Assembly (NCBI GenBank): GCA_963664185.2
Contig: CAXXOQ010000143.1
Coordinates: forward strand, 3,821-67,820
Direction of reading: 5' to 3'
Source of the DNA: Caldilineaceae bacterium
GTDB taxonomy: Bacteria; Chloroflexota; Anaerolineae; Caldilineales; Caldilineaceae
DNA length: 64,000 bases
The notes under the pieces: generated by a model
What the model was told of the DNA's origin: nothing
Databases searched by the model: none
The model's input: only the letters and a program-made list of their open reading frames with translations
In this document: positions 5,096 through 63,815 of the stretch, piece by piece
How the letters are laid out: every line of letters starts with the position of its first letter
How positions within the stretch are numbered: the stretch's first letter is position 1
Position numbers and translations under genes: made by a program

Positions 5096-5104
5096 AGGCG
5101 TATG

Positions 5105-6085
5105 TCAGTCTGCGTAGATTCCGTCCAGCACGGTTCCGGGATCGGGGAACGGACTCTGTTCCGCTTCCGCAAACGCTTCCTGGATTTCCGTATCCACTTC
5201 TGCTTCCAGTGCAACCAACTGGTGTGTATCCACCATGGCCTGATGGAGCAGGCGCTCCCGAAAGGCCCGCACGGGATCCCGGGCTTCCCACTCCGCCAGC
5301 AAGGCGGCGGGCACATATTCGGCACTGTCATGGATGGCATGGCCCAGCATGCGCATGGTCCGGGCTTCAATCAGGCCCGGCCCTCCGCCCTGCCGTGCCC
5401 GTTCCAGCATGCTGCAGGCCGCGTTGTATACACTCTCCACATCGTTGCCATCCACCACGGTCGCGGGTATGGCATACGCCTTGGCCTTGTCCACCAGTTC
5501 CGGCACAGCCGTGTGCTCCGTGGCCGGGGTGGAATAGGCATACTGGTTGTTTTCCAGAATGACTACCAGGGGGGCTTGATACAACGATGCCATGTTCAGG
5601 CATTCGTGAAAGACCCCGGCCGTCGATCCCCCGTCTCCGCACACCGTCAGGGCCGCTTGCGGCTGATTGCGATACCGGAAGCTCATGGCGGCACCCAGCG
5701 CCGGCGGCAGGGACTGGGGTATATGGCTGATAAAGCCGATCAGATTGAGGCGCAGATCCCCGTTGCCGTGCAGATTGGCATCCCGCCCCCGGGTCGTGCC
5801 ATTGGCCCGTCCCAGCAGATTCGCGTAGATCTGCCGGGGTGGCAGGCCCCGCAACAGATACATCCCTACATTGCGGTGCATCGGCGCCACCGCATCGTCC
5901 TTCTGCAGGGAAAAGCCGGCGCCAATACTTACCGCTTCATGGCCCCGTGCACTGAAACAGGTACCCAGGCCCCGTCCCTGTTTCCACATGGAAACCATGG
6001 TTTCATCAAAGCGGCGGGTCAGATACATCCACCGATAGACTTCGATTTTCTGGGCACAGGAAAGGAGCGCGAAGGGGGCAGTCAT
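5105..6085 (-). CDS. 2-oxoacid dehydrogenase E1 component, alpha subunit (TPP-dependent)
   Basis: 326 aa ORF with a GDG(X)n-NN TPP-binding motif (CGDGGSTAGVFHECLNMA...LENNQYAYSTP). Confidence 0.9.
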   Translation of the reverse strand: MTAPFALLSCAQKIEVYRWMYLTRRFDETMVSMWKQGRGLGTCFSARGHEAVSIGAGFSLQKDDAVAPMHRNVGMYLLRGLPPRQIYANLLGRANGTTRGRDANLHGNGDLRLNLIGFISHIPQSLPPALGAAMSFRYRNQPQAALTVCGDGGSTAGVFHECLNMASLYQAPLVVILENNQYAYSTPATEHTAVPELVDKAKAYAIPATVVDGNDVESVYNAACSMLERARQGGGPGLIEARTMRMLGHAIHDSAEYVPAALLAEWEARDPVRAFRERLLHQAMVDTHQLVALEAEVDTEIQEAFAEAEQSPFPDPGTVLDGIYAD

Positions 6086-6807
6086 GGAGCAGGGTTACAT
6101 CGGGCCAAACGCGACAGGATCTCGGCCACGGTCTCCTCAAGCGTGAAATCGGTTGTATCTATGATATCAGCATTTGCCGCAGGCACGGAGGGTGCCACAG
6201 CTCGTGTGGCATCCTGGTGATCCCGGTTCTGCATGTCTTCCCGCACCGTGGCCAGGGGCGTGGGTTTGCCCTGTTCCGCCAGCTCTCGATACCTGCGGCG
6301 GGCACGGACATCCAGGTCAGCATCAAGGAAGAACTTGCAGCCAGCGTCGGGAAACACGACCGTGCCGATATCCCGTCCAATGATGACCACCCCGCCGTCG
6401 GGCTGGGAATTCTCCAGATGGTCCAGTCCAATTTCCCGCATCTGTATCGTAAGTGCATGGCGCACGCCGGGATTTGCCGACACCGTGGGCAGCAGTTGAT
6501 CCACTTCGGGACTCCTCAGATTCCAGGTCACATCCTGGCCACCCATCCTGACGGTGGTCGTCCGTCCATCTGCGATTTCATGCACGGCAGGGGGACGCAA
6601 TTGTACCTGCAGGGCTTCCGCGGTCTCGTTCATCCTGGTGGAGGAAATGGGAGAACCATCCTGCAACAGTGCCCAGCATACGGCCCGAAACAGGATGCCG
6701 GTGTCAAAGAACAGATAGCCCAACGCATGGGCCACCCGAAAACCGACGGAGGACTTGCCGGAGGCTGAGGCCCCGTCAATGGCAATACAACGGGAAAACA
6801 TAACCAT
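6082..6807 (-). CDS. cmk: Cytidylate kinase (start uncertain; the ORF is open to 6840)
   Basis: IAIDGASASGKSS P-loop and Cmk-like body. The stop overlaps the E1-alpha start in an ATGA overlap (6082-6085). Confidence 0.85.
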   Translation of the reverse strand: MVMFSRCIAIDGASASGKSSVGFRVAHALGYLFFDTGILFRAVCWALLQDGSPISSTRMNETAEALQVQLRPPAVHEIADGRTTTVRMGGQDVTWNLRSPEVDQLLPTVSANPGVRHALTIQMREIGLDHLENSQPDGGVVIIGRDIGTVVFPDAGCKFFLDADLDVRARRRYRELAEQGKPTPLATVREDMQNRDHQDATRAVAPSVPAANADIIDTTDFTLEETVAEILSRLARCNPAP

Positions 6808-7031
6808 GTCGTGTCGGTCTGCGACCTGTCTGGGCATCAAGCCTCACCGGAGAAACGGGATCGACTTCTGTCACCCAGCGCAGGTCCCAATGGCTGCGGT
6901 CGTCCCTGACTGGCTTGTGGCATTTCTGGTACACACCTTTTCCCGTTCCCGATTCCCCAAGTTCTTGGCCGGCGTGGCCGACGGGATGCCGCACGTTCGT
7001 ACAACCCGGAAAGCCGACACAGGTACCGACT

Positions 7032-7863
7032 TTATCCTCGGCCGGGGACTTGGTCGGTATTCCCGAGAGCCGTGGAAGGATCGATACCGTGCGCCTGCAG
7101 AATTCTGGATAACTTCCGTAATTCATCCTGCTGTGCAGCGATCTCGACATTCTTGGCCGTTAACCTGGCTTGCTGCTTGGCCAGCTTCCTGTCCTTCTCT
7201 TCTCCCGCCAGCAACCAGGTTTGGGTTTTCGTTCCCAGATGCGCAAGGTTCACCAACCTCGTGCATCACGCTGACAGGCGACATGCGTCTGCAGCCACCG
7301 GCTCTCCATCACCCATTCTGTCCCGGTGGTAGTAAGGGGCAAGGGCGGGTACACGCCTGCGTGCAATGCCCATCCCTGCAGGGGATCTACAGATGCGTCC
7401 CGAAACTTGCCCTGTGCATCAAAAATCCAGTATTCCTCTACCCCAAGCCCCTGATACACCTCCAGCTTGTCTACCAGGTCGCGGCGGCGCGTGGACCGCG
7501 AAAGCACTTCCACCAGCAGGGAGGGCGGCCGCTCGCAACGATCGCCATCGTATCCTTTCCCGTCATAATCGACGCTGACGTTCCTGGCGGATGCCACGTG
7601 TACCATCAGATCGGGATAGAAGACAGTTCGGATCCCCGCCACGGTGCACTTGTACCATTCGTCCCGACGTACCTCGCAGGTTTCATCCTGGAGCTGTGCC
7701 CATTGGTTCAGGGCATCCTGCAGCACAGTTTGGACATCGTTATGGGCTGGATGCACAGAAACATCCTCCCCTTGTCGCAGTCATTGCCAATCCAGTCCTG
7801 CAGTTCTTTCTTTTGTCCGGCGCCGGATTCTGTCCAGGACAGGACAGGCATAGTGGTACCCAT
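7032..7863 (-). pseudogene. Uma2-family (DUF820) endonuclease gene split into three reading-frame pieces
   Basis: The core ORF 7250-7756 has the PDLMV...PSLLVEVLS(R)ST...D...K...Y...GV.EYW(I)FD Uma2 signature. The coiled-coil C-terminal tail typical of the family (TWLLAGEE...LRKLSRILQAHGIDPS) lies in another frame (7032-7256). A GGAGGA RBS plus ATG at 7863 opens a third frame (MGTTMPVLSWTESGAGQKKELQDWIG...). Confidence 0.6.
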
Positions 7864-8117
7864 GGCAACGGTTTCCTCCTAACTGGCGACCATCTAATTG
7901 TACCTTATGGATATGAACCGCACAGGTTCAGGTTGTGCCACTGACACAGTGGGAATTGGTTGCATTGCGGGAACAGAGCGCAGGGATGGGGACGTGAGAC
8001 AGTACGCAGGATTCTGGGCAGTTCCGGGTGCACTGGATCGTATTTCATAACCCCTCAAATGCAGCAGGCGCAGGGAATTGGTGCCGAGGCTTCACGAGGC
8101 AGGCATATGGTAGTGGG

Positions 8118-8524: not shown

Positions 8525-9538
8525 CTACGGCTGTAACAGAATTTTGAGCGCACCGGATCGACTTGCGGCGGCCATTGCTTCGGCCCCATCCGCCAAAGGC
8601 ATCTCACAGTCAATGATTTCTGCTGCTGGAAACTTGCCGGAACGGGTGCCCGCCTGCAGCCAGGACAGGGCCCAGGCAAAGGGACCACAACGGCTGCCCC
8701 TTACCTGTATCTCGTTGACCACCAGGGTGTTCAGATCCAGGTGTCCCGTGTGTTCCGCTTTCGTACTCTTGAGCACCAGCGTTCCCATGGGCCTGACCAT
8801 GGACTGAGCCATGGTATAGGCACTCCCGGAGCCCGCACATTCCACCACAATGTCAAAGGCATGGTACTCACGTTCTGCCACGTGCAATTCCCTGTCCGCC
8901 ACATTTTCGGTCTGGATCCCCCTTGCCGCCAGCAGTCCGAGTTTGCGATCATGCCGCCCAAACACCTGCAGATCACACCGGGTGTCCTGCAGGGTCAAGG
9001 CTATGAGCAGGCCAAGCTTGCCATCGCCGATCACTGCTACGCGCTGGGCAGGTCCAATCGACAGCTGTTCCTGAATGCGCAGTGCCGCCGCCACGGGCTC
9101 GGTAAACACGGCTACCCTGTCTTCCATGCCCGCCGGCACCTCGTGCAGGTTCACCACCGGGAGGGAAACATACGTGGCGAAAGCGCCATCATGGGCCAGA
9201 ATCCCCAGACAGGTCCGCCGGGCACAATGACGGAAGAAACGCCGCTGGCAGTCAGGACACGCGCCGCAGCCGACGTTGATTTCTCCCACCACCCGCTTGC
9301 CGATCCAATCAGGCTGTGCGGAACATGCCTCCACCACGCCCGTGAATTCATGGCCGAGGATCAGATCCTGGGACGGCATGTAACCGGCCAGCAACTGCAG
9401 GTCCGTATTGCATATGCCGGCCAAGGTTACCCGAATCAGGGCATCGGCCGCACCCGGTATGGGCACCGGGTAGTCCCTGCGTAACGTCAACCCGTGTTGC
9501 GTTAGCTGCAACGCCTGCATATAGGCTTGCGTCTGCAT
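8525..9538 (-). CDS. Zinc-dependent alcohol dehydrogenase family (MDR) oxidoreductase
   Basis: 337 aa ORF with GICNTD, GHEFTGVV and a structural-zinc Cys cluster (CGACPDCQRRFFRHC). Confidence 0.85.
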   Translation of the reverse strand: MQTQAYMQALQLTQHGLTLRRDYPVPIPGAADALIRVTLAGICNTDLQLLAGYMPSQDLILGHEFTGVVEACSAQPDWIGKRVVGEINVGCGACPDCQRRFFRHCARRTCLGILAHDGAFATYVSLPVVNLHEVPAGMEDRVAVFTEPVAAALRIQEQLSIGPAQRVAVIGDGKLGLLIALTLQDTRCDLQVFGRHDRKLGLLAARGIQTENVADRELHVAEREYHAFDIVVECAGSGSAYTMAQSMVRPMGTLVLKSTKAEHTGHLDLNTLVVNEIQVRGSRCGPFAWALSWLQAGTRSGKFPAAEIIDCEMPLADGAEAMAAASRSGALKILLQP

Positions 9539-9554
9539 GCGGCACCTGTAAAGG

Positions 9555-10511
9555 CTAGGCTGACGCCGCCGGAACCCCCTGCGGAATCTTCTGCGTCAGG
9601 AATTTGCGTTCGTGCCAAGCCACCAGCAGCGGGGTGGCATTGCAAAGGGAACTGTAGGTTCCCGAAATCAGACCCACGATCAGGATCGCCATGAATTGCT
9701 GCAGGGTGGCCCCACCCAGAAACAGAATGGCCACCAGGACCAGCAGCGCCGTAATCTGGGTGGCAATGGACCGCTGCAGGGTCTCCACCACGCTGCGGTT
9801 GGCAATGGTAGCGAACCTTTCGCCCTGATAGCGTCGCTGATTCTCGCGGATGCGATCAAAGACCACAATCGTATCGTTTACGCTGAATCCGATGACCGTC
9901 AGCACCGCTGTGAGGAAAAGCGCATCGACCTCCCACGAAGCGATGAGACTCATCAGGGACAAGAATGACAATGTGACCAGAACGTCGTGGACCAGGGCGA
10001 CAATGGCACAGGCACCGTAGCGCAAGGGATGACTGACATGCCGAAACGCCGCAGTAATATACAGGAGAATGGCGATCGCCGCCACCACAATGGCCACAAA
10101 GGCCGCCCGACTCACTTCAGCGCCGATGGAAGGACCAATGTTGCGGTAGAACAGCTCGTCAAAGGGTCCGACCTGCGCGGCAATCAGGCCCTCAAGCTTC
10201 TCCTTGACGTTGTTGTCAATGTTCTTGAGCTTGAGTTGTACCGTCCGATCATCCTGCACCAGGAACGCTGTGGTATCGGTCAGGCCTTCATTCAGCATGA
10301 CTTCCCGTACCACTTCCGGCTGCACGGGTACTTCAAAGCGTATTTCCCACTGTACGCCCCCGGTATAGTCGATGCTGAGGGGCAACAGGCCCTGTCCGGA
10401 GACACCCCGGATCACCATGAACAGCAGTCCCGGCAAAATGATGATCAGGGAGAAAACGAACCAGAGGGTACGCTTTTCGACAATGTTGATCCAGGCAGAT
10501 TGTCCATTCAT
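9555..10511 (-). CDS. secF: Protein translocase subunit SecF (the alternative start at 10565 overlaps secD)
   Basis: SecF-type 6-TM protein (FSVNDTIVVFDRIREN motif) directly after secD. Confidence 0.9.
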   Translation of the reverse strand: MNGQSAWINIVEKRTLWFVFSLIIILPGLLFMVIRGVSGQGLLPLSIDYTGGVQWEIRFEVPVQPEVVREVMLNEGLTDTTAFLVQDDRTVQLKLKNIDNNVKEKLEGLIAAQVGPFDELFYRNIGPSIGAEVSRAAFVAIVVAAIAILLYITAAFRHVSHPLRYGACAIVALVHDVLVTLSFLSLMSLIASWEVDALFLTAVLTVIGFSVNDTIVVFDRIRENQRRYQGERFATIANRSVVETLQRSIATQITALLVLVAILFLGGATLQQFMAILIVGLISGTYSSLCNATPLLVAWHERKFLTQKIPQGVPAASA

Positions 10512-50386: not shown

Positions 50387-51841
50387 TTATTCGTCGTCGT
50401 CCCGGCGTACGAATACGGAGATCAGACCTACCACGATGACCACCATCAGGATCACCGCCACAGCAAATACCAGGGGAGAGAAAGTGCCCAGGAACGGGAT
50501 TTCGACCGCTGGCATGTTGTCAAGATCGAAGGGCATTTCCAGATTCGCCAGGAACCCTTCGCGGGCGGGAGGAGGCGTGGGGGTAGGTTCGGCCACCGGT
50601 GCCTCTTCCCCGGGCGTATCTTCCGCCGCAGGGGTAGGCGTGGGTTGCGGGTCTGTGTCTGCTGCCGGCACGGGGGTAGGTGTCGGGGCTGCAGGCTCCG
50701 CCGCTGCCGGTTCCGTCTCATCGGGGGCTTCGGCGGTGTCCGCTACCGTCCGCAAAACCGGCTCGGGCAGGGGCTGGGACAGCAACGTGTCATAGCGGCC
50801 CAATGACTGAAAGGAATATCCCTGATCCGGGGAACGAATCACCCAGCCGGCATCGGTCCCCGCGTAAGCATATCCCTGCAGGCCTTCCAGAGTCCAAACC
50901 ACCCCGCGGTACGTTTGCTCATCCACCTGGGGTCGCAGCCACTGGTTGCCATTGCCCACCCAGAGACCGCGGCCGGTTCCCGCAACCAGCAACGTACCTT
51001 CCTGAAACAGGGCAAATACCGAAGCGTCCACCGGAAACCCGGGAGCCTGCGTCCAGTCGACGCCATTGACCGATCGCCAGAGGCCTGCCCCGACCAGGCC
51101 CGCATACAACGTATCCCGGTAGACCTCCAGACTGCGCACCAGCGTACCGTCTTCAAAGTTGCCCACCGGGTTCCAGGAATCGGAATCGGCATTCTGGGCA
51201 AAGATGCCGTCGTGGGTGCCAATGTACAGCGTCCCCCTGAACTCCGTGATCGTACGCACGCGCCGCGCACTCTGGGCTGGCGTATCGCTCAAGGACAGGC
51301 CGATGGCATTGATGACCCAGGACTCACCGTTGTCATAACTGGTCAGCACCCCATCCTGACGGGTACCGGCATGGAGAATGGAAAAGCCATCGACATTCTG
51401 GGCGTAAAGAACCCCAACGCCACTGTCACTGCCCAACCAGCTCAGGAAGACCGGCAATTCCTCAAAGCTGCGGCCCCCATCCAGGCTGCGAAACAGAAAG
51501 CCGGTGGCACCGTCACCGGCATAGACAATGGCGGGACTGACGATGTCATGTTCCACGGCCGCAATGCTCAGTCCCGCGGGTATACCGGTGGACCGGGTCC
51601 AGGAAACACCGCCGTCTTCGCTATAGTAAACCCCTGCTTCATCCGGCACATTGAGTGTGCCCACAACGATCCGGGCAGGATCATTGGGCGCAACGGACAG
51701 GGAAATGACAGCATTGGACGTGGGGGGAGCGCTCTGGGCCCAGCTGCGGGAAGGATGCAGTTCCCCCAGCACCAGGCACAGAATGAGAAACGGCAAACAC
51801 CATCCCCAGTTGCGGACACGAGCTACCACGCAGTGCTTCAT
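50387..51841 (-). CDS. Secreted BNR/Ycf48-like beta-propeller protein with a Pro/Thr/Ala/Glu-rich linker and a C-terminal TM anchor
   Basis: Signal peptide, repeated S-x-D-x-G-x-(S/T)-(W/F) motifs (SEDGGVSW, SLDGGRSF, SYDNGESW), a low-complexity linker, and the hydrophobic tail PLVFAVAVILMVVIVVGLISVFV. Confidence 0.6.
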   Translation of the reverse strand: MKHCVVARVRNWGWCLPFLILCLVLGELHPSRSWAQSAPPTSNAVISLSVAPNDPARIVVGTLNVPDEAGVYYSEDGGVSWTRSTGIPAGLSIAAVEHDIVSPAIVYAGDGATGFLFRSLDGGRSFEELPVFLSWLGSDSGVGVLYAQNVDGFSILHAGTRQDGVLTSYDNGESWVINAIGLSLSDTPAQSARRVRTITEFRGTLYIGTHDGIFAQNADSDSWNPVGNFEDGTLVRSLEVYRDTLYAGLVGAGLWRSVNGVDWTQAPGFPVDASVFALFQEGTLLVAGTGRGLWVGNGNQWLRPQVDEQTYRGVVWTLEGLQGYAYAGTDAGWVIRSPDQGYSFQSLGRYDTLLSQPLPEPVLRTVADTAEAPDETEPAAAEPAAPTPTPVPAADTDPQPTPTPAAEDTPGEEAPVAEPTPTPPPAREGFLANLEMPFDLDNMPAVEIPFLGTFSPLVFAVAVILMVVIVVGLISVFVRRDDDE

Positions 51842-52051: not shown

Positions 52052-53563
52052 CTAGAAGCCGAAACCCAGCAGCTGTTCGGAAGCGGTGGTGGCCCACTCC
52101 AGCAAAGGCGCCGGGAACAGGCCAATCCAGAAGACAATCAAAGTACACAATACCAGCACCGCGCCCATGCCGACCGGAATCGGGATGGGGGACGTGTCGG
52201 CCGGCCGACTCCCGAAGTACATGGCCCGGATCACGTTGATGTAGTAAAACGCGGCGATCCCGGCGTTGATCACACCGGCGCCCGCGAGCCAGAAATACTG
52301 CCGTTGCACGGCGGCCCCAAAGACAAAGAACTTGCCCCAAAAGCCGGCGGTGGCCGGGATGCCCGCCAAACTGAGCAGAAAGACGGTCAACATGAGGGCC
52401 AGGGCAGGCGAACGGGCAAAAAGGCCCTCGTAGACCGACAGCTGGGTGCTGCCCTGTCGCTCTTCCAGTACCATCACGACCAGAAAGGCCCCCACATTGG
52501 TGAACATGTAGGCGAACAGGTAAATCAGGATCCCGTTGATCCCGTCCATGTAGCTCTCGGTACCCGCGGCCAGGGCTGCGATGCCCATCAGAATATAGCC
52601 GGCATGCGCCACCGAACTGTAGGCCAGCATGCGTTTGACATCCCTTTGCCGCAGGGCCATGAGATTCCCCATGGTCATGGTCAGGATGCACAAACCTGCC
52701 AAAATGGGCACCCAGTTCACCAGCAGGTCGTTGAGCGCCACGACAAAGACCCGGGCTGTCACCGCCAACCCTACGGCTTTGGAGGCCGTAGACAGATAGA
52801 CCGTGACCGGTGTAGGCGCCCCGTCATAGGTATCGGGCGCCCACTGGAAGAACGGTGCCAGGGTGGCCTTGAAGCCCAGCCCGGCCATCACGAACATGGT
52901 AGCCGGCATCAGGCCCAGCACCAGTGCTTCCGTATCGCCTGCCTTGAGCAGTGCCGAAACCTCGTGCAGATTGAGGGTGCCCGTCGCGCCGTACACGAAG
53001 CTGATGCCGTACAGCATCGCCGCCGAGGCGACGGCACCGTACAGGAAATACTTGAGACCCGCCTCGGTACTGCGCTGGTTGTCGCGCAGAAAACCGGCCA
53101 GCAGATAGCTGGTGATCGACAGAAATTCAATCGCCACGTACAGCAACAGCAGGTTGTTTGCGCTCAGGGCCACACAGAGGGCCAGCGACACAAACACGAA
53201 GAAACTCCAGAATTCGCCGCGCCGCGCCGTGCGCTGATTCATGTAGTTGCCGCCGGCCAGGCCGATCAGGATCATCACCAGCAGCAGGGGCGCCTTCAGA
53301 AAGGCGGCAAACAGATCCATTTCCATCAGGTGCAGGGCGATGCGCGGCTGCTGCCCCACTTCCAGTTCGAAATAGGCGAAGGTCTGGAACAGGGCGGCGA
53401 CAAAGGCTCCGCCCAGGGTAAACAGGGCCAGAGTGGTATAGCCGCGTCCTTCATCCGTGTGGCCCCGCACCGCCACATCGATCAGGAATATGATCAGCCC
53501 CCCGACAAGCAGGATGATTTCAGGGACTAGCAGGCTGAACTGCTCCACAGGCCATTGCTCCAA
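52052..53563 (-). CDS. nuoN: NADH-quinone oxidoreductase subunit N
   Basis: 503 aa antiporter-like subunit, last gene of the minus-strand nuo operon. Confidence 0.9.
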   Translation of the reverse strand: MEQWPVEQFSLLVPEIILLVGGLIIFLIDVAVRGHTDEGRGYTTLALFTLGGAFVAALFQTFAYFELEVGQQPRIALHLMEMDLFAAFLKAPLLLVMILIGLAGGNYMNQRTARRGEFWSFFVFVSLALCVALSANNLLLLYVAIEFLSITSYLLAGFLRDNQRSTEAGLKYFLYGAVASAAMLYGISFVYGATGTLNLHEVSALLKAGDTEALVLGLMPATMFVMAGLGFKATLAPFFQWAPDTYDGAPTPVTVYLSTASKAVGLAVTARVFVVALNDLLVNWVPILAGLCILTMTMGNLMALRQRDVKRMLAYSSVAHAGYILMGIAALAAGTESYMDGINGILIYLFAYMFTNVGAFLVVMVLEERQGSTQLSVYEGLFARSPALALMLTVFLLSLAGIPATAGFWGKFFVFGAAVQRQYFWLAGAGVINAGIAAFYYINVIRAMYFGSRPADTSPIPIPVGMGAVLVLCTLIVFWIGLFPAPLLEWATTASEQLLGFGF

Positions 53564-53585
53564 TGCATGGGAAAAAGATAAGGCA

Positions 53586-55205
53586 TCAGGTCAGATTGGT
53601 TATGAATTCGATCAGCTGCATCGATGAGGCATTGAAGAAGGAAAGCAGCCAGGTCGGATAGATCCCGATGACCACCATGCCAATGACCAGAGGCCACAGC
53701 GTGATCTTTTCAAACAGGACCATATCCGTGGGGCCACTCGTGTGCTGGCCGTCCACGGTAGTCCAGTGCTCCAGCCGTTCCGCATCGTATTCGCCCAGGA
53801 ACACGTTCTGGAGAATGCGCCACAGGATGTAGACCGCAGTCATGACAATGCCGATGGTGCCAAATGCCGCCCAGACCGGCACAATGGCGAAGGCGCCGCG
53901 GAACGTGAAGAATTCCGCCCAGAATCCGGCCAGGCCGGGCAGGCCCAGACTGGCAAACGCGGTCACCATCATGATCCCATAGAAATAGGGAGTCTTGGCA
54001 CTCAGGCCCCCGAACTTGGACAGATCGCGGGTATGGGCGCGCTCGTAAATGATCCCGACCAGCAGGAAGAGCGCGCCGGTGATGATGCCATGGTTGAACA
54101 TCTGGAGCGTGGCGCCATTGAGGGCCATCACCGCACTGTCATAGACTCCGGACGCCGGAAGGGTCCCACCCATCTTTTCCGTGACCTTCTGCAAGCCTTC
54201 CGGCGTAAGCACCAGGGACGCGGCGCCTATGCCCAGCATGACATACCCCATGTGGCTCACGGAACTGTAGGCGATAAGCCGTTTCAGATCCCGCTGGGCC
54301 ACACAGACAAAGGCGCCGTAGACAATGGCGATGGCGCCGACCGCAATGACGACGGGTGCCCAGAACTGGCTGGCTTCCGGATAGGTCGGCAGAATGATGC
54401 GCAGAAAGCCGTAGGCGCCCAGCTTGAGCAGGACACCGGCCAGGATCACACTGCCGGCCGTGGGGGCCTCGGTATGGGCATCCGGCAACCAGGTATGGAA
54501 GGGGAAACTCGGCACCTTGAACGAGAAGCCCAGGAAGAAGCCCCAGAAGGCGAGACTGCCCAGCAGGATGCGCGTATCATAGTCCAACTGCACGAAAGGC
54601 TGGGCCTGGGCGGCATTCAGGATGTCAAATGTGCCTGTCGCCAGATACGTGATCAGGATCGCCAGCAGCATGGCGACGGACCCGACCAGGGTGTAGATGA
54701 AGAACTTGATGGAGGCGTAGCTGCGGTTTTCTCCGCCCCAAATGCCGATGAGGAGGTACATGGGCACCAGGCTCACTTCCCAGAAGAGGTAGAAGAGCAC
54801 ATAGTCCAGGGCCATGAAGACGCCCAGCATGCTCAGTTCCAGCAGGTGGAACATCACGAAATATTCCCGCACCCGGGTGCGGATCGTGCGGGCACTGTAA
54901 TAGATGCTCAGGGTGGAGAGCAGGGTGGTCAGGAAGATCAGGGGCAGGCTCAGGCCATCCGCACCCAGCCGGAAACTGGAGTTGAGTACCGGAATCCAGG
55001 GCGCGGTGATCTCGAACTGCATGCCCCCCAGTTCCCGATCATAGGTGAAGAGCAACACGACACTGAGGATCAGGGGGACCAGGCTCGCCAGGATGGAAAC
55101 CCGGCGAATGGACTGGTCGCTGCGACAGAACAGCATGACCCAGATCCCGGCCACGAGGGGGAAAAACAGGGTTGCAAACAATGCCACCTGGCTCGAATTG
55201 GCCAT
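53586..55205 (-). CDS. nuoM: NADH-quinone oxidoreductase subunit M
   Basis: 539 aa ORF with NuoM-type motifs (FHTWLPDAHTEAPTAGSV). Confidence 0.9.
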   Translation of the reverse strand: MANSSQVALFATLFFPLVAGIWVMLFCRSDQSIRRVSILASLVPLILSVVLLFTYDRELGGMQFEITAPWIPVLNSSFRLGADGLSLPLIFLTTLLSTLSIYYSARTIRTRVREYFVMFHLLELSMLGVFMALDYVLFYLFWEVSLVPMYLLIGIWGGENRSYASIKFFIYTLVGSVAMLLAILITYLATGTFDILNAAQAQPFVQLDYDTRILLGSLAFWGFFLGFSFKVPSFPFHTWLPDAHTEAPTAGSVILAGVLLKLGAYGFLRIILPTYPEASQFWAPVVIAVGAIAIVYGAFVCVAQRDLKRLIAYSSVSHMGYVMLGIGAASLVLTPEGLQKVTEKMGGTLPASGVYDSAVMALNGATLQMFNHGIITGALFLLVGIIYERAHTRDLSKFGGLSAKTPYFYGIMMVTAFASLGLPGLAGFWAEFFTFRGAFAIVPVWAAFGTIGIVMTAVYILWRILQNVFLGEYDAERLEHWTTVDGQHTSGPTDMVLFEKITLWPLVIGMVVIGIYPTWLLSFFNASSMQLIEFITNLT

Positions 55206-55249
55206 GGGCCCGGACCTCCTACCTAACCTCGACTCGATTCAAAAGCTGT

Positions 55250-57466
55250 CTAAACCAGCGTCAATACGATCGGCATGCCGACCAGTGCGATCCAGATCGA
55301 CAGCACCGTGAGGGCGATCACCAGATACGCCTGCACCTTGCCATCCTGCAGGCGTGTGAGCACACCGCCACTCCAGTGCATCAGCTTGCCAATCAGATTG
55401 ACAATGCCATCCACCAGCAGGGCATCCGCAGCGGCGGCCAGTGCTGCGATCCAGACGCCCATGCGGCCAATCCAGTTCACCAGCGGATCAATGATCCAGG
55501 TGGCGTCCACATCGGCAAAGAACGCGGCCGCATTGCGGCTCCAGCGCACCACCGTAGCATCGTACAGTTCGTCCACAAAATACTTGCGATGCCAAATCTG
55601 CCAGAGCGCGCCGAAGGCATCCACCAGGGGATCCGTCTTGCCCGCCGGCAGGCCCCGGCCATACACGATCCATCCCAGGGCCAGGCCGCCCAGGGCGACC
55701 AGCACCGACACCAGCAGCGGAATCAGGTTGAACTCCGGATGCAGGACATGAATGTGGATGACTTCCATGAAGGGTTCCAGATAATGCCCCAGCCAGTTGG
55801 GCACCAGGTTGCCCAGTACCGGGAACGTGCCGGGAATCCCAATCCAGCCCAGCGTGATGGCAAAAAAACTGATCAGCACCAGCGGCACCGTCATGCTGCG
55901 GGTGCTTTCGGAGGCATGTTCGGCCATGGCCGTACGGGGCTGGCCATAGAAGGTCAGCGCTATCTGGCGCATGGTATAGAACGCGGTCAGGAAGGCGGAC
56001 AGCGCCAGGACGACAAACACCACACCATGGCCGGCGAAAGCCGAGGCCAGAATTTCATCCTTGGACCAGAAACCGGCGGTGATCAGCGGGAACCCGCTCA
56101 GGGCCAGTCCCCCTATGATGAAGGTATAGCCGGTCACGGGCATGTGCCGCAGCAAGCCGCCCATGTTGCGCATATCCTGGGGATCGTTCGGATCCAGCAC
56201 ACCGTCCTTGCGATGTACCGGTCCCGCTTCATGGCCGTTGTGATGACCGTCTTCCCCGTGGCCATGGGCATGCTCATGGCCGTGTTCCATGCCGTGGATC
56301 ACACTGCCGGAGCCGAGGAACAGCAGGGCCTTGAAAAAGGCATGCGTGAGCAAGTGGAACAGGGCGGCCACGTACGCGCCGATGCCCAGGGCCGCCACCA
56401 TATAGCCCAGCTGGCTGATGGTGGAGTAGGCGAGCACACGCTTGATGTCCCATTGGGTCAGGGCAATCGTGGCGGCAAAGAGGGCCGTGAAGGCCCCCAC
56501 CGCCGCCATCACGGTCATGGTCGCGGAGGTAATCGTCAGCGCCCGATCATAGAGGGGATACAGCCGCACCAGCAGGAAAACGCCTGCCGACACCATGGTG
56601 GCCGCATGGATCATGGCCGACACGGGGGTGGGCCCCTCCATGGCGTCGGGCAACCAGATGTGGAGCGGGAACTGGGCACTCTTGCCAATGGTGCCGCAGA
56701 AAATCAGGAAGGTGACAATCGACAGCCAGGTGAATTCCCGGAATCCCAGATTGGCGTAGGTATTGCTGAGTTCCAGCAGGTTGGTGTCGCTGAACAGGAC
56801 ACCGAAGTCCAGCGAACTGGGATGGCTCTGGATGTACAGCAAAATCAGGCCGGCGAACATCAGGGCATCCCCGATACGGGTGGTGACGAACGCCTTGAAG
56901 GCGGCCCGTTTGGCACTTTCCTTCTCGAACCAGAAACCGATCAGCAGATAGCTGCACAGCCCCATGATTTCCCAGAACACGAAGAACGTGATCAGGTTGT
57001 TGGACGTAACCAGGCCCAGCATGCCGGTGGCGAACAGGGAAATGTAGGCAAAGAACCGGCTGTAGCGCGGATCCTTGTGTTCCGCGTGGGCTTCCGGATA
57101 GGCTTCCGGCTTCAGGTGGGGGGGAAAGGTCATGTAGCCCCTGGAGTAGATGAAAATCATGACCAGGAGAAACGTCACCATGAACAGCATGAGGGCATTG
57201 GCCGGATCCAGGGCCCAGCCAATGTGGATGGCGGACGCGCCCGTCGGGATCCGGAACAGCGTTTCGTACAGGGGATGTTCCGCCAGATGATGATCCAGGA
57301 AGGCCGTGAAGGCCACGCCCCAGCCCAGCACCAGGCTGACCAGAACCCCGCCAATGGCGATGGACGCACTGAGGACCTTGTTGGAATTGGTGAACAGAAT
57401 GATCAGGACAAACGCCAGGGCCGGCGGCACGGCGATGAACCAGGTCAGGTCATAGAGTGCAGTCAT
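55250..57466 (-). CDS. nuoL: NADH-quinone oxidoreductase subunit L (738 aa, with a His-rich insertion)
   Basis: [43 protein letters not shown], and the long C-terminal lateral-helix region. Confidence 0.9.
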
Positions 57467-57879
57467 GTTGCGCCATCAGAAGAAATATTGCGGGGGCGAG
57501 ACAGCTCCGCAGAAGACTTGAACGAGAAGGGAAAGTGCGCCCTGCGCAGGCCGGTGTAGCCCAGGTAGCCCCCTACCAGTCCCAGGATGCCAACCCCTAT
57601 GATCAGCAGGTCATGGGTTACGCCTGCCGTGCGTGCCAAGGTCGCAAACAGGACTCCAGAGACCAGGCCCACGAGGATCATGCGGCGCTGCTCCCGCTTT
57701 TGGCCCTGCAGCTGGACCAGTAGGGCGGGCACATCCCGGTAATCAGGGCGGTGTTTGGCCACTTCCCGGAGGGCGTACAGGGCGCCTGCATAATTGCCTT
57801 GCGCCATCTTGTCCCGTGCCAGATCATAGAGAAAGGCACACTGTTCATCCAGAGACCCTTCCAGCATTTTCTTGGCCAT
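57463..57879 (-). CDS. Hypothetical small membrane protein (TPR-like N-terminal helices plus 2 TM) embedded between nuoK and nuoL
   Basis: 138 aa ORF. Its ATG is 8 nt after the nuoK stop, and its TGA overlaps the nuoL ATG (ATGA at 57463-57466). The hydrophobic segments are [16 protein letters not shown] and [18 protein letters not shown]. Confidence 0.6.
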
Positions 57880-57887
57880 GATCCGAC

Positions 57888-58199
57888 TCAGCCCTGCAAC
57901 ATGTCGATTTCGTCCAGGTTCACGGTTTGGCGTGACCGGTAGATGGCGATGATCAGGGCCAGGCCCACAGCGACCTCGGCCGCCGCTACCGCAATGACGA
58001 AGATGGCGAAGGTCTGGCCGGCCAAATCGGCCCGGTTCGGCCCATAGCGCCAGAAAGCCACCAGATTGATGTTGACGGCATTCAGCATCAACTCAATGGC
58101 CATCAGCATCGCGATGGCATTGCGCCTCACCAGCGCCCCGTAAAAGCCGCAACAGAACAGAAATGCGGCCAGCACCAGGTAAGCCTGCAGCGGAACCAT
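57888..58199 (-). CDS. nuoK: NADH-quinone oxidoreductase subunit K
   Basis: 103 aa ORF with 3 TM helices and the [10 protein letters not shown] motif. Confidence 0.9.
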
Positions 58200-58222
58200 G
58201 AACGGAATCGTCCTCCCTTGCC

Positions 58223-58753
58223 CTATTCGTCGTCCCGGGCCAGCATAACTGCGCCCACCAGGGCGATCAGCAAGAGCAGGCCAATCAATTCCAGTGCCAC
58301 GCCATAGGTCGAGACAAAGTTCCAGCCCAGATCGGCAATCAGGGATTCGTCCGCTTCCAGGGCGGTATCGCCCATGCTCCAGGGAACCCGGTCCACGACA
58401 CCGGCCAGCATGAGGAACAGGAGCAGGGAAACGGACATGACGGCAAACAGGTGCCGGTTGTTGGTGGCCGTAGCCCCAAACATAATGCCCTTCGTCAGCA
58501 TGATGGCAAAGGTGATCAGGGTAGCGATCGCGCCCACATACACCAGGACCTGGGTCACAGCCAGGAACTCGGCTTCCAGCAATACGTAGATGCCGGCCAC
58601 GCCAAAGAGGGTGGCCACCAGGGCCAGGGCGGCGTAGAACAGGTTGCGACAGGTCACAACCAGGATACCGGCCACGGCTGTCATCAGGGCTACGGCCCCG
58701 AAAACCGCCTGCTGGACAGTAGGAATGGGGATCTCAACGGGCAAGGGGGGCAT
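58223..58753 (-). CDS. nuoJ: NADH-quinone oxidoreductase subunit J
   Basis: 176 aa ORF with the NuoJ-like [18 protein letters not shown] motif. Confidence 0.9.
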
Positions 58754-58783
58754 AACGGCAGAATGGTGGCAGAGAGGGAAAGG

Positions 58784-59995
58784 TCAGTTCTCGACCGCAG
58801 GCTTCATGGTGCCAATCAGGGAATCAGGGGTAAAGGCGCGCTTGGGGCGCACCATGTCCTGCTTCAGGTGTTTGCCGATCGCGCTGAGCGCGATGCCAAT
58901 CACGACGATATTGCCCACCAGAATGGCGATGTGGATGAAAGCGGTATCCCAGGGCAGCACCTGAATGATCATTTGCCAGGAAAGCAGGCCCACAGTGAGG
59001 GGTACCAGCATTTTCCAGCAGAAGGACATCATCTGGTCCACCCGGAGGCGGGGAAATGTACCCCGCACCCAGATCTGCAACAGGTACACCAGGAACGTCT
59101 TGCCCACAAAGTAGGCGGCCCCCAGCCAGGGACCGATGCCAGGCAATTCCACGCCGGGGCCGTTCCAACCTCCCAGGAAAAGCACCGCGGTCACGGCCGC
59201 CAGGACAAAGCCGTTCAGGAACTGGGCCAGGAAGAACATGGCAAAGCGCATACCCGAGTATTCAATGTGAAAACCGGCAATCAGTTCCGATTCGGCTTCC
59301 AGCAAATCAAAGGGGGTCTGCTCCGACTCCGCCAGGGAGCACATAAAGAAGATGAGGGCAGCGCCGGGCATGATAAAGATGTACCAGCCCAGGCCCAGAA
59401 AGTGGCCTTGCGCCGCGGCGAGCGTGCTGAGTTTCATGGAACCCGCGACCAGCACCACGGCCAGCATGCTCAGGACCAGGGGAATCTCATAACTGAGCAG
59501 TTGGGCCACGACCCGGAAACCGGACAGCAGGGCGTACTTGTTGTTGCTGCCCCAGCCGGCCATGAGGGCCGCCATGATGCCTATGGAACCCAGGGCCACG
59601 ATATACAGTACGCCCACATTCAGGTCGGCGCCCACCAGGCCCGGTGTGATCGGGATGACCGCAAACAGCAGAATGATGCCGAAGACCGACAGGACCGGTG
59701 CCAGATTGTAGGCGATAAAGTCGGCGTTGCTGGGCGTAATGGTTTCCTTGGACACCAGCTTGAGGGCATCCGCCAGGGTCTGCAGCAAACCGAAAGGCCC
59801 CACCCGATTGGGGCCAATGCGATCCTGTATGCGGCTGATCACCTTGCGCAGCAGCCAGATCAGGACCAGGGCGATCAGAGGGGCCACCAGCCCAATGGCC
59901 GTCGCCCCCACGACCAGGGCCACAGCCGATGCAATCCCTTCCGGCAAGCCTGCGTTCGTCAGGGATTCAGTGAGCACAAAGTACCATTCAGCCAA
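58784..59995 (-). CDS. nuoH: NADH-quinone oxidoreductase subunit H
   Basis: 403 aa ORF with [31 protein letters not shown] and the E-x-E-L-x-x-G-F motif. Confidence 0.9.
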
Positions 59996-60026
59996 GATGC
60001 AAGTCCCCAGAAATATCTGTATCAGT

Positions 60027-60389
60027 CTACTGCCATTCCAGTCCGCCCTTGCGCCAATCGTAGATCAGGCCCACGATCAGCAGGAGCATAAAGAACAGCG
60101 TAACCAATGCAGCCGCCAGGCCAAACTCGGGACGGCCGTATGCCAGGGCAATGGGAAAGAGGAATATGACTTCCAGATCGAACACCAGGAAGACGAGGCC
60201 AATCAGGTAGAACTGCGCCCTGAACTGGATCCATGTATCGCCAATGGTGTTGAGACCACTTTCGTAGATGTCGTTCTTGACGGGATCGGGTTTGCGCGGC
60301 CCCAGAATCCAGCCAGCGACGATGGAAACCAAAGGCAGAACGATCCCCAAACCACTCAGAATCAGGATGAATGCGTAGTTGACCAGCAT
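60027..60389 (-). CDS. nuoA: NADH-quinone oxidoreductase subunit A (copy heading the membrane-arm operon)
   Basis: 120 aa from the ATG at 60389, with [17 protein letters not shown] and [10 protein letters not shown] motifs. Confidence 0.85.
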
Positions 60390-60587
60390 GGGCTCCCAAC
60401 CCTTTCCGGAAACCTGCGACCTGTCGTGCCAAAGCCAAACACTGCTGTTTCCGGAGTCCCAACAAAATCCCCCTGGTGGGAGGATCAGGATCGGCGGACA
60501 CAACAATGTGCAGTGTAGCACACAGCATAGCCTGTCCCAAGAAATACGGGCAGGACAAGTGCCATGTCGGAGCCGGCAGACCCAAAG

Positions 60588-60927: not shown

Positions 60928-61007
60928 CCAACAGGGTTGCTCATTCATCCTCCCACAAGACGGTTTTGGATGGTCCCTGCAGCCTTGGTGTACCCCCGAC
61001 CTGGATC

Positions 61008-61388
61008 ATGGAAGAAGTAGCGAACACCCCCAAGGATTTTCTGCCCCTGCTGATCATGGTGCTGGTTTCCCTGGCCGTGGCAGGCGTTGTGATTCTGGTC
61101 CCAATTCTCTTTGGCCCGAAGAATCTGACCCAGACCAAGGGTGAAGCCTACGAGTCGGGCATCATTCCCTTTCACAATACCCATCGGCGGTTTCCGGTGC
61201 AGTATTACCTGATCGCGGTCCTGTTCATCATCTTTGACATAGAGGTCGTATTCCTCTATCCATGGGCGGCCGTGCTGCACAACGCCGCCGTGAAATATGT
61301 CGCGCTGGCAGCCATGGCCCTGTTTCTGGCCATCATTGTGATTGGCTTTGTCTACGAATGGCGCAAGGGCGCCCTGGATTGGGAATAG
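61008..61388 (+). CDS. nuoA: NADH-quinone oxidoreductase subunit A (copy heading the peripheral-arm operon)
   Basis: 126 aa from the ATG at 61008, with YESG, FIIFDIEVVFLYPW and YEWRKGALDWE motifs. Confidence 0.85.
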   Translation: MEEVANTPKDFLPLLIMVLVSLAVAGVVILVPILFGPKNLTQTKGEAYESGIIPFHNTHRRFPVQYYLIAVLFIIFDIEVVFLYPWAAVLHNAAVKYVALAAMALFLAIIVIGFVYEWRKGALDWE

Positions 61389-61403: not shown

Positions 61404-61943
61404 ATGGGTTTGGAACAACTGCTGCCGGAAGACAGTCTGGTCACGGCCCGCCTGGAAGACCTGGTCAACTGGGGCCGCAAGCACAGCACATGGCCCCTGT
61501 TGTTTGGCCTGGCCTGCTGTGCCATGGAAATGATCGCCGCGGGCACCGCCCGCCACGATATTGCCCGTTATGGATCGGAACTGTTTCGGGCGACACCGCG
61601 CCAGGCCGATCTGATCATCGTGTCCGGGCGCGTCAGCAACAAGATGGCGCCGGTCATCCGGCGGCTGTACGACCAGATGCTGGAACCCAAGTGGGTCATC
61701 GCCATGGGCATTTGTGCCAGTGCCGGGGGGCCCTTCAACAACTACGCCATCGTACAGGGCGTAGACAAGATCATCCCGGTAGATGTGTACGTACCTGGCT
61801 GTCCGCCACGTCCCGAGGCATTGCTCTATGGCCTGGATCTGCTCCGCCAGAAACAGGCAGGCGAGCACTTCCGCAAGTACGATTTCACGGCGGCCATGCC
61901 TGCCGCAACCAAGAGCGATTCCGGTCTGGCCGTGCGCGGCTGA
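61404..61943 (+). CDS. nuoB: NADH-quinone oxidoreductase subunit B
   Basis: [17 protein letters not shown] and [10 protein letters not shown]2-cluster motifs. Confidence 0.95.
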
Positions 61944-61976: not shown

Positions 61977-63815
61977 ATGCCTCTGCTCAATGTTTCCCCT
62001 GTGCAACGTCCCTATGAGACGCTGCCCAATCTGAATGACATCGCCATTCCGGCACGGGCACCCGCCCTGGGCACCGACACCGAGGATACCCGGGCTATCC
62101 AGGAGCGTTTTGGGGAAGCCATCCAGGATTCGGGCCTGCAGTTCGACTTGCCCTTTGTCGTGGTGCAGCCGGATGCGTTGACGGATCTGGCTACCTGGCT
62201 ACGGGACGGGGAACTGGGTTACCACACGCTGGTGGATGTCACGGCGGTCGATCTTTCCCAGTTGCCGGGCACGACCGGGGACCACCAGTTTCAGACCGTT
62301 TATCAGTTCCGTGCCTATGACCGTCACCTGCATCTGGCCGTGGTGTGTCCCCTGGAGGGCGGACGCAGTCCCGTATGCCCCAGTCTGGCCTCCGTTTTTC
62401 CCGGCGCCATCTGGCCTGAGCGGGAAGTCATTGATCTGATGGGTATCACCTTCACGGGCCATCCGGATCCGCGGCGCATCCTGATGCCGGCCAACTGGCC
62501 GAATCACCCCCTGCGCAAGGAAGTGCCGCTGGGGGGCGAGGACGTGCCCTTCACTCTGACTTGGGATCATCCCGAATTCGAGTCGCTGGGCGAACAGGTG
62601 CTGGAAGCCACCAGCCTGCCGCCGGAACTGCCGCCGGGCATGAGTCGCCAGAACATGATTCTCAACATGGGGCCGCACCATCCCAGCACCCACGGCGTGT
62701 TGCGCCTGGTGGTCGAGCTGGATGGGGAGCGGGTGGTGCATGTGGACCCGGATCTCGGGTACCTGCACAGCGGTTTTGAAAAGACGGGCGAGAACAAGCG
62801 TTACAAGGATTTCGTGTACTACACGGACCGCATGGACTATCTGTCCGCCATGAACAACAACCTGGGGTATGTGCTGGCCGTGGAAGGGATGCTCGGCCTG
62901 GAAGTGCCTGCGCGGGGCCAAGCCATCCGGGTCATCATGGGGGAATTGCAGCGTCTTGCCTCGCACCTGTTCTGGCTTTCGACCCATGTGCTGGATGTTT
63001 CAGGCACAGGCATGAGTCTGCTGATGTACGCGACCCGGGAACGGGAACGGATCCTGGACATGTTCGAAATGGCCTGTGGCGCCCGCCTGACTACCAGCTA
63101 TATCCGCATGGGCGGTGTCTGGAAGGACCTGCCAGAGGCTTTCCTCGGTGCAGTGCGGGAATTCTGTGATCTGATGCCCGGTCGCATTGAGGAATATGCC
63201 ACCATGATGGACGACAGCCCCATCTGGCATACCCGTCTGGATGGCATTGGTCTCGTCACCCGCGAGGAAGCCCTGGCCAAGGGCTTGACGGGTCCCATGC
63301 TGCGGGGGAGCGGGATAGACTGGGACTTGCGCCGGGATCGCCCCTATACGGGCTACGAAAACTACGACTTTGATGTGCCGGTCAGCCAGCGGGGCGATGG
63401 TTACGGCCGGTACGAAGTACGCATGGAGGAGATGCGCCAGAGCGTGCGCATTATCCGCCAGGCGCTGGACCGCCTGCCCGACGGTCCCTATCGGGCGGAA
63501 GATCGCAAGGTGAATCCCCCGCAACGGGCGGAACTCGATGTCAGCATGGAGTCCCTGATTCACCATTTCAAGCTCTTTACCGAAGGTTTCAAGGTGCCCC
63601 CCGGCATGTACTACCATGGCATAGAGGCCAGCAAGGGGGAACTGGGCTTCTTCATCTACAGTGATGGCTCGGGCAAACCCTATCGCCTGCATGTCAGGGG
63701 ACCCAGTTTCAACAATCTCTTTGCCATCAGTGACATGAGCAAGGGGTTGATGCTGTCCGACATCATTACCAATATCGGCTCCATTGACATTGTGCTGGGC
63801 GAAGTCGACCGCTAA
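61977..63815 (+). CDS. nuoCD: Fused NADH-quinone oxidoreductase subunits C and D
   Basis: Single 612 aa ORF. The NuoC-like N-terminal about 200 aa are followed by NuoD motifs (NMGPHHPSTHGVLRL, and GEVDR at the C-terminus). Confidence 0.9.
   Translation: MPLLNVSPVQRPYETLPNLNDIAIPARAPALGTDTEDTRAIQERFGEAIQDSGLQFDLPFVVVQPDALTDLATWLRDGELGYHTLVDVTAVDLSQLPGTTGDHQFQTVYQFRAYDRHLHLAVVCPLEGGRSPVCPSLASVFPGAIWPEREVIDLMGITFTGHPDPRRILMPANWPNHPLRKEVPLGGEDVPFTLTWDHPEFESLGEQVLEATSLPPELPPGMSRQNMILNMGPHHPSTHGVLRLVVELDGERVVHVDPDLGYLHSGFEKTGENKRYKDFVYYTDRMDYLSAMNNNLGYVLAVEGMLGLEVPARGQAIRVIMGELQRLASHLFWLSTHVLDVSGTGMSLLMYATRERERILDMFEMACGARLTTSYIRMGGVWKDLPEAFLGAVREFCDLMPGRIEEYATMMDDSPIWHTRLDGIGLVTREEALAKGLTGPMLRGSGIDWDLRRDRPYTGYENYDFDVPVSQRGDGYGRYEVRMEEMRQSVRIIRQALDRLPDGPYRAEDRKVNPPQRAELDVSMESLIHHFKLFTEGFKVPPGMYYHGIEASKGELGFFIYSDGSGKPYRLHVRGPSFNNLFAISDMSKGLMLSDIITNIGSIDIVLGEVDR

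Follow-up and report, generated by a model that had tools for sequence, protein, structure and literature searches.

Bacterial complex I is usually regarded as a minimal 14-subunit enzyme, and few lineage-specific additions to it have been characterized. We asked what is encoded by an open reading frame (ORF) that occupies the junction between nuoK and nuoL in a Caldilineaceae bacterium (assembly GCA_963664185.2, contig CAXXOQ010000143.1, positions 3,821-67,820 of the forward strand). This 64,000-nt stretch is referred to as the window, coordinates are those of the window unless another locus is named, and the ORF (57463-57879, minus strand) is given the working name X. We found X to be a genuine protein-coding gene that is under selection, vertically inherited, and lineage specific. 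Its product probably has a role associated with complex I, whether as a subunit or as an assembly factor. Tentatively, we read it as a lineage-specific supernumerary (accessory) subunit of the enzyme.

The evidence for a real gene that belongs to this junction came from its relatives. A search spanning 5.8 billion proteins found nine homologs with 97-43% identity, none of which is named or carries a Pfam domain; each of this set that was inspected sits at the nuoK-nuoL junction. A pattern scan that used one genome for each GTDB species showed 118 genomes to encode a relative; 80 of these were kept, and nearly all of the kept genomes are labeled Caldilineaceae or Caldilineales (Chloroflexota). 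In 80 of these 80 genomes, X shares the strand of nuoK and nuoL and is flanked by the two, and no X homolog outside the nuo context was found in these 80 loci (of the 118 stretches encoding a relative). The syntenic homolog that the initial annotation proposed to look for is thus present throughout the kept species genomes, and in metagenome loci as well. Genomes and metagenomes together yielded 91 DNA-distinct orthologs in about 96 loci, mostly from Caldilineaceae. All are co-oriented and follow the order K-X-L wherever flanks are present, with nuoK upstream in 89 of 91 and nuoL downstream in 88 of 91; copies missing a flank are at contig ends or in the truncated locus L070. The most divergent members (32-37% identity) occupy the K-X-L position too, and X was present in all three loci that were reached via NuoK instead of via X.

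Pairwise ratios of nonsynonymous to synonymous substitution rates (dN/dS) for X were 0.1-0.37 at unsaturated distances, indicating purifying selection, and 14 columns are invariant among 85 distinct proteins (L6, G8, Q13, C14, L17, K24, G28, N29, G32, A33, E39, D90, G100, and G104). Spurious ORFs are frequent in GC-rich DNA, as the antisense ORFs in the window illustrate, and the X ATG is not preceded by an obvious Shine-Dalgarno motif; both points would suit an ORF that arose by chance in intergenic or overlapping sequence rich in GC. The comparative data refute this explanation, to which we give practically no credence. Because the reading frame is kept in 91 distinct orthologs and dN/dS is far below 1, chance in GC-rich DNA does not account for X. 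In addition, the G+C fraction of X is higher at third than at second codon positions (GC3 > GC2), as in the other real genes of the window; the 417-nt space between nuoK and nuoL is not present in out-group operons; and an AlphaFold2 (AF2) model is confident over residues 11-110, with 10-residue block means of 81-89 for the predicted local distance difference test (pLDDT).

We also considered whether X is part of another protein. NuoK, NuoJ, and NuoL are of normal length whether or not X is present, and on this ground we rejected the idea that X is a split-off piece of a neighbor. One metagenome protein (P0140, 268 aa) consists of an unrelated N-terminus of 190 residues, without a Pfam match, and the C-terminal half of X, which here comprises the capping helix and the two transmembrane (TM) helices. 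It may be a fusion but is more probably a gene-call or assembly chimera, and we do not use it as a Rosetta stone. Other long proteins matched by the family profile are not Nuo fusions; they are generic proteins combining caspase/CHAT domains with tetratricopeptide repeats (TPRs).

In the window, the DNA and the ORF list agree that X is a 138-codon ORF on the minus strand, its coordinates including the stop codon. The nuoK stop (TGA, 57890-57888) is separated by the 8-nt spacer gtcggatc from the X ATG (57879-57877), and the X stop (TGA, 57465-57463) overlaps the nuoL start (ATG, 57466-57464) as ATGA. The earlier description of an ORF that fills the nuoK-nuoL junction, with this spacer and this overlap, is therefore correct. 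Pfam also names NuoJ, NuoH, and one NuoA copy further upstream of X. The minus-strand genes nuoA2-H-J-K-X-L-M-N diverge from plus-strand nuoA1-B-CD, and the features around X are as follows.

52052-60392, minus strand: compact membrane-arm operon nuoA2-H-J-K-X-L-M-N, with intergenic gaps of -4 to 44 nt
57888-58199, minus strand: nuoK, upstream neighbor (PF00420, E = 1e-30)
57877-57890, minus strand: nuoK stop TGA, 8-nt spacer, and X ATG (window DNA)
57463-57879, minus strand: X, a 138-aa conserved hairpin membrane protein with a predicted cytoplasmic TPR head (ORF, orthologs, dN/dS, AF2)
57463-57466, minus strand: ATGA shared by the stop codon of X and the nuoL ATG (window DNA)
55250-57466, minus strand: nuoL, downstream neighbor (PF00361, E = 8.5e-76, and PF00662)

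We then looked beyond the X-bearing operons. An alignment of NuoK headed by the most divergent X-bearing operon was used to scan a metagenome collection, which gave 80 NuoK-anchored loci whose NuoK is 51-75% identical to that of the window; 69 of them include the K-L junction. In 68 of these 69, nuoK directly precedes nuoL without X (median gap, 25 nt), and the few longer gaps contain no convincing ORF. The initial annotation had held that canonical operons place nuoK directly before nuoL, and this arrangement was verified here; X is, by the same count, a lineage-specific insertion. The remaining junction, in locus L122, carries a divergent X (hidden Markov model E = 6e-30). An exhaustive profile search added two more divergent members, P0061 and P0032, which are ~32-36% identical to the window X, do not have its Cys, and stand in the order K-X-L, or X-L on a short contig. 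In neighbor-joining trees built from NuoL and from NuoH, all of the core Caldilineaceae clade carries X. From these trees, which are rough, X predates the core clade and was lost or transferred at the clade edges.

X is a helical-hairpin membrane protein of ~120-140 aa across the family. For the window X, an AF2 model built on a 10-sequence alignment (mean pLDDT, 75) places helices at residues 10-26, 30-43, 50-84, and 90-115. Residues 116-138 have pLDDT below 50, and this tail is predicted to be disordered. Hydropathy divides the protein into a polar N-terminal section of 65 residues, the basic stretch KREQRR, hydrophobic segments at 67-85 and 91-110, and a polar tail. The layout given by the initial annotation, with a TPR-like N-terminus, a basic stretch, two TM helices, and a polar tail, is upheld by sub-threshold Pfam matches, the AF2 model, and hydropathy. 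The parts of X are as follows.

57682-57879, minus strand: residues 1-66, N-terminal lead LxGxLxEQC, one TPR (aa 14-47), capping helix, and KREQRR; predicted cytoplasmic
57625-57681, minus strand: residues 67-85, TM helix 1 with GxxxG, continuous with the capping helix (hydropathy, AF2)
57610-57624, minus strand: residues 86-90, short loop on the predicted outer (periplasmic) side ending at invariant Asp90, motif (P)ND(L) (charges, alignment)
57550-57609, minus strand: residues 91-110, TM helix 2, glycine-rich, with invariant G100 and G104 (hydropathy, AF2, alignment)
57466-57549, minus strand: residues 111-138, basic then polar C-terminal tail of variable length; predicted disordered and cytoplasmic

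The best-conserved part is the lead plus the first TPR helix (LxGTLEEQCxFLYxLAxEKMxxGNYTGA). GxxxG motifs, in which both TM helices are rich, occur in 85 of 85 X sequences, and D90 is invariant in the same number. The outer loop has a median of 6 aa across the family, with on average 1.1 acidic (D+E) and 0.2 basic (K+R) residues; the mean number of K+R is 4.4 in the 12 residues ahead of TM helix 1 and 2.2 past TM helix 2. From this charge pattern, the positive-inside rule predicts a cytoplasmic location for the TPR head and for each terminus, and an Asp90 loop that faces outward. The GxxxG motifs, invariant G100 and G104, and positive-inside charges are typical of a helix-packing hairpin. In the model, the head appears as a three-helix module of 1.5 TPR repeats whose last helix runs unbroken into TM helix 1.

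How far the head deserves the name TPR is a matter of degree. Pfam TPR matches to aa 16-58 are below the gathering threshold (TPR_19, 20.9 versus 25 bits; TPR_2, 17.9 versus 27 bits), and TPR_2 aligns residues 16-47 with model positions 3-34. X agrees with the TPR consensus when position 1 is set at C14 and positions 4, 7, 8, 11, 20, 24, 27, and 32 are tested: L17, L20, A21, A33, L37, and P45 fit positions 4, 7, 8, 20, 24, and 32, V40 is semi-conservative, and K24 does not fit, with the tested columns 93-100% conserved. The family profile repeatedly matches hundreds of long multi-TPR proteins through profile positions ~12-65, and Pfam confirms these long proteins as TPR proteins. A tandem array of at least three repeats with a superhelical groove is not what X has; it has one repeat and a capping helix. 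X therefore belongs to the TPR superfamily (Pfam clan CL0020) only in a loose sense, via its single repeat.

Beyond this generic signal, X stands apart in the databases. No family in Pfam, NCBIfam, PHROGs, or PADLOC matches it significantly, and no Nuo family of Pfam or NCBIfam (14 core families) matches X, while its neighbors match their own families. Every named member of the X cluster is annotated "hypothetical protein." When the family profile was compared with all PDB chains, including all solved complex I and NDH-1 structures, it returned only weak matches to generic TPR proteins and PufY (E ≥ 0.18). Likenesses to Psb34 (NCBIfam, E = 0.12), exosortase and PsbQ (Pfam), and PufY (PDB, E ~0.7) were set aside as chance resemblances of TM segments. 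Foldseek against the PDB returned generic TPR folds and nothing at E ≤ 0.001, and no complex I chain is among the top 50 matches listed. We found no mobile, phage, or defense match in PHROGs or PADLOC at E ≤ 1; such a match to a mobile or selfish family was named at the outset as a result that would count against a link to complex I. In the literature, we found neither a description of the gene nor a structure of a Chloroflexota complex I. As judged from these comparisons, X is a new, unannotated protein family that is outside both the core Nuo families and the known accessory-subunit families.

Three kinds of known protein invite comparison. Lineage-specific accessory subunits of bacterial complex I or NDH-1 are established: Nqo15 and Nqo16 in Thermus, the NDUFS4, NDUFS6, and NDUFA12 homologs in Paracoccus, and NdhL-S in cyanobacteria. 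Like these, X is a small addition to the 14-subunit core in one lineage and is dispensable in relatives; like NdhL, NdhP, and NdhQ, it is short, helical, and membrane-bound and would have its place on the membrane arm. Unlike them, X has no sequence similarity to solved complex I or NDH-1 chains at E ≤ 1 and combines a TPR head with a two-helix hairpin as no known accessory subunit does; unlike most of them, it has its gene within the operon, with a core gene on either side. The TPR biogenesis factors (Ycf37/Pyg7, Pitt/Slr1644, Ycf3, TTC19, and LapB-type proteins) share with X a cytoplasmic or stromal TPR module, a membrane anchor, and a link to a large complex. However, they carry at least three repeats and usually a single anchor, whereas X has 1-1.5 repeats and a C-terminal hairpin, and Pfam, the family profile, and the PDB showed no homology other than the generic TPR signal. 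Lastly, the top local Foldseek matches to the head are cytosolic domains of Fis1 (root-mean-square deviation of ~2 Å over ~60 residues, probability ~1), at a non-significant E of ~0.5. Fis1, of mitochondria and peroxisomes, also has a small helical TPR-like head at the membrane surface and a C-terminal anchor, but its head has six helices (two TPR-like repeats), it has one TM helix, its identity to X is 16-21%, and it belongs to another kingdom and process. This resemblance is analogy, not homology.

What ties X to complex I is above all its place. X is co-localized and co-oriented with structural genes across the lineage, and it has kept its position while X itself diverged to ~32% identity and NuoL to 49%; this positional constancy is the strongest evidence for the link. 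In a comparison of distance matrices for X and 10 Nuo proteins over 49 taxa, X distances tracked those of all Nuo subunits (r = 0.85-0.92, highest for NuoL at 0.92), which fits co-inheritance of X with the operon. Adjacent operon genes also tend to encode interacting subunits. Fixed position, tracking divergence, this tendency, and the precedent of accessory subunits together favor a role associated with complex I. Within that role, the invariant glycine-zipper hairpin, the mid-operon position, and the two-sided coupling found in the window's subclade argue for a stable subunit. We picture such a subunit as a co-product of NuoK and NuoL whose hairpin would be packed onto the membrane arm, with its small TPR head at the cytoplasmic face, where it may stabilize a neighboring element or offer a docking surface. 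We infer a physical association with complex I, and likewise its stoichiometry and docking site.

The coupling itself needs qualification. The initial annotation had based its proposal of a lineage-specific accessory or assembly subunit on tight coupling within the operon. X is indeed coupled on both sides in the window's subclade, which favors its co-production with NuoK and NuoL there. The ATGA overlap of X and nuoL is confined to the subclade of the window and L011, and median gaps in the family are 55 nt between nuoK and X and 69 nt between X and nuoL. The proposal stands as far as X is lineage-specific and tied to the operon; coupling as its general basis does not.

Several observations weigh against a subunit of complex I, beginning with spacing, as only 11 of 86 X loci are tightly packed. 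Partial rate correlations of X are small and unstable (NuoL, +0.32; NuoA1, +0.36; NuoK, -0.35) and single out no partner. GC3 of X is lower than that of nuoJ, nuoK, and nuoL in 69 of 77 loci (0.66 versus 0.71-0.75; mean difference, -0.067) and in the window (0.68 versus 0.79-0.81), which suggests, as far as codon usage can tell, lower expression than that of core subunits. X also evolves faster, with a median identity of 47% versus 55-82% for most core subunits; NuoA1 (53%) and NuoJ (55%) alone come near its rate. At the clade edges, presence is patchy. In the NuoL and NuoH trees, X-bearing L122 is sister to L165, which is without X; X-bearing L096 falls with L146 and L163, which are X-negative, and the NuoH tree adds L126 and L144 to its group; and L126 has the divergent two-nuoA architecture of the X-bearing operons without X. 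Since such near relatives do without X, related enzymes evidently work in its absence. Finally, a single TPR cannot make the usual peptide-binding groove, and TPR proteins are commoner as assembly factors than as structural subunits. The lower codon bias and the patchy presence leave room for a non-stoichiometric role.

One such role, which we consider possible although rather unlikely, is that of a transient membrane-anchored TPR assembly factor that binds a nascent subunit or module of the membrane arm and leaves the finished enzyme, for example by joining the NuoA/H/J/K module to NuoL/M/N. X sits exactly at the boundary of the proximal (A/H/J/K) and distal (L/M/N) gene blocks, its head is of TPR type, and membrane-anchored TPR proteins recur in the biogenesis of energy-converting complexes (Ycf3, Ycf37/Pyg7, Pitt, and TTC19). 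Its lower codon bias than the flanking core genes in those 69 of 77 loci would fit sub-stoichiometric production, its absence from sister lineages marks it as dispensable, and an assembly factor could also evolve faster than most core subunits, as X does. To our knowledge, however, assembly factors are rarely encoded amid the structural genes of bacterial nuo operons, which counts against this role for a gene placed mid-way. The two-sided coupling in the window's clade favors equimolar synthesis, 1.5 repeats are too few for a classical client-binding groove, and the invariant GxxxG hairpin suggests a stable helix-packing interface. We regard as unlikely a regulatory or tethering adaptor that is co-expressed with complex I and stays outside the catalytic assembly, recruiting a respiratory complex or a cytoplasmic enzyme to the membrane arm or sensing redox state via Cys14. 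The architecture resembles that of tail-anchored TPR adaptors, and Fis1 domains give the top local matches in structure; conservation is higher in the N-terminal head than in the TM region, and Cys14, which lies in the most conserved segment, is invariant in 85 of 85 core-family sequences. Against this, the Cys is replaced by Ala or Leu in P0032, P0061, and the L122 copy, so a redox switch is not the ancestral function; the Foldseek matches are generic at E ~0.5; and no candidate partner gene is conserved beside the operon in the loci of the nine-homolog search.

Lower still we place two further readings. X could be an operon hitchhiker, unrelated in function to complex I and retained through transcription of the operon: no functional domain links it to the enzyme, most related operons do without it, and on one metagenome-assembled genome (MAG) contig (L070) it follows A2-H-J-K without L-M-N. 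This is improbable given the purifying selection on X, a position kept down to ~32% identity in X and 49% in NuoL with zero relocation, the lack of copies outside nuo operons in the 80 genome loci, and the lack of mobile, phage, or defense matches. About equally improbable is a more specific form of the subunit proposal, a stoichiometric subunit whose TPR head would dock another enzyme, another complex, or a second complex I on the membrane arm, with Cys14 making this contact or the activity of the enzyme sensitive to redox state. If true, such a docking platform would be a way of regulating or organizing bacterial complex I for which no precedent is described.

An accessory protein of complex I, our favored account of X, is a known kind of protein; its single-TPR head on a two-helix hairpin and its intra-operon position are new. 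The family is absent from Pfam and NCBIfam and is locked into the membrane-arm operon of widespread aerobic Chloroflexota, which come from sponges, oceans, soils, and wastewater. Should X prove to be a subunit, it would be the first in a bacterial complex I known to pair a TPR with a hairpin, and a natural experiment on how the proton-pumping arm recruits accessory subunits; should it prove to be an assembly factor, it would be one of the rare ones encoded in an operon. Since the group has cultured members (Caldilinea aerophila, Litorilinea aerophila), the prediction can be tested directly. A name and a model for the family would allow hundreds of "hypothetical proteins" to be annotated consistently. 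Some close operons differ only in the presence of X (L122 versus L165, and L095/L096 versus L126, L144, L146, and L163); these pairs imply loss or transfer and are natural controls.

Core subunits of the X-bearing operons have features of their own. Traits specific to X-positive operons in the core clade include an RxDGxLD extension of NuoL in the His-rich loop between TM11 and TM12, a NuoH tail with KRAFxPxSLIGTM, and F13 of NuoK; residues and insertions that set X-positive apart from X-negative operons exist in NuoL, NuoH, NuoJ, NuoA2, and NuoK. We rejected these as docking marks for X: L096 and L122, divergent loci that bear X, have none of them, so they are core-clade synapomorphies. The His-rich insertion of NuoL (residues ~392-430, window ~56177-56293, minus strand) lies ahead of the conserved QDMRNMGG motif, in what a comparison with NuoL of E. 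coli indicates to be the TM11-TM12 loop. It may bind metal. The His-rich loop is widespread in the wider group, and only the core Caldilineaceae clade has the conserved R-x-D-G-x-L-D extension. NuoH (residues ~383-403; 58787-58849, minus strand) has one more TM helix at its C-terminus and, behind it, a basic tail whose K-R-A-F-x-P-x-S-L-I-G-T-M motif is confined to the core clade and absent from out-groups and divergent X-bearing loci.

L070, from a Litorilinea aerophila MAG contig (1-3321 and downstream), carries A2-H-J-K-X and then unrelated sugar-metabolism genes (an enolase-superfamily protein, a glycosyltransferase, a DegT aminotransferase, and UxuA). The same MAG has a second X locus, L085, with a complete operon, and L070 is a truncated second copy, a strain mixture, or a chimeric contig. 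In L093, NuoH is split into two ORFs (2114-3354 region) and "NuoL" (4836-7919) is called as 1,027 aa running into NuoM-like sequence; these calls are probably frameshifts of a long-read assembly, not real fusions. L095, a divergent X-bearing contig, has an IS605 OrfB/TnpB (Cas12f-like) gene (8877-10088, minus strand) just downstream of nuoN.

Complex I genes are arranged in two divergent operons, A1-B-CD(fused)-EF(fused)-G and A2-H-J-K-X-L-M-N, each with its own full-length nuoA paralog; the EF fusion is ~664 aa in relatives. This layout with two operons and two nuoA genes is common to L001-L096, and L126 has the same architecture without X. A scan for operon terminators and promoters gave only weak consensus matches inside coding sequence. 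No nuoI was found between nuoH and nuoJ or elsewhere within the window. The genes at the divergent junction and the ORF that follows nuoN are as follows.

60027-60392, minus strand: divergent nuo gene
60966-61388, plus strand: divergent nuo gene
61404-61943, plus strand: divergent nuo gene
61977-63815, plus strand: divergent nuo gene
50387-51841, minus strand: 484-aa ORF directly downstream of nuoN, with an N-terminus resembling a signal peptide, a region rich in Pro, Thr, and Ala, and a TM anchor at the C-terminus

Relatives keep the 484-aa ORF at the same position, where the sole annotation is a faint match to DUF6242_C, and a Mur-ligase gene comes after it.

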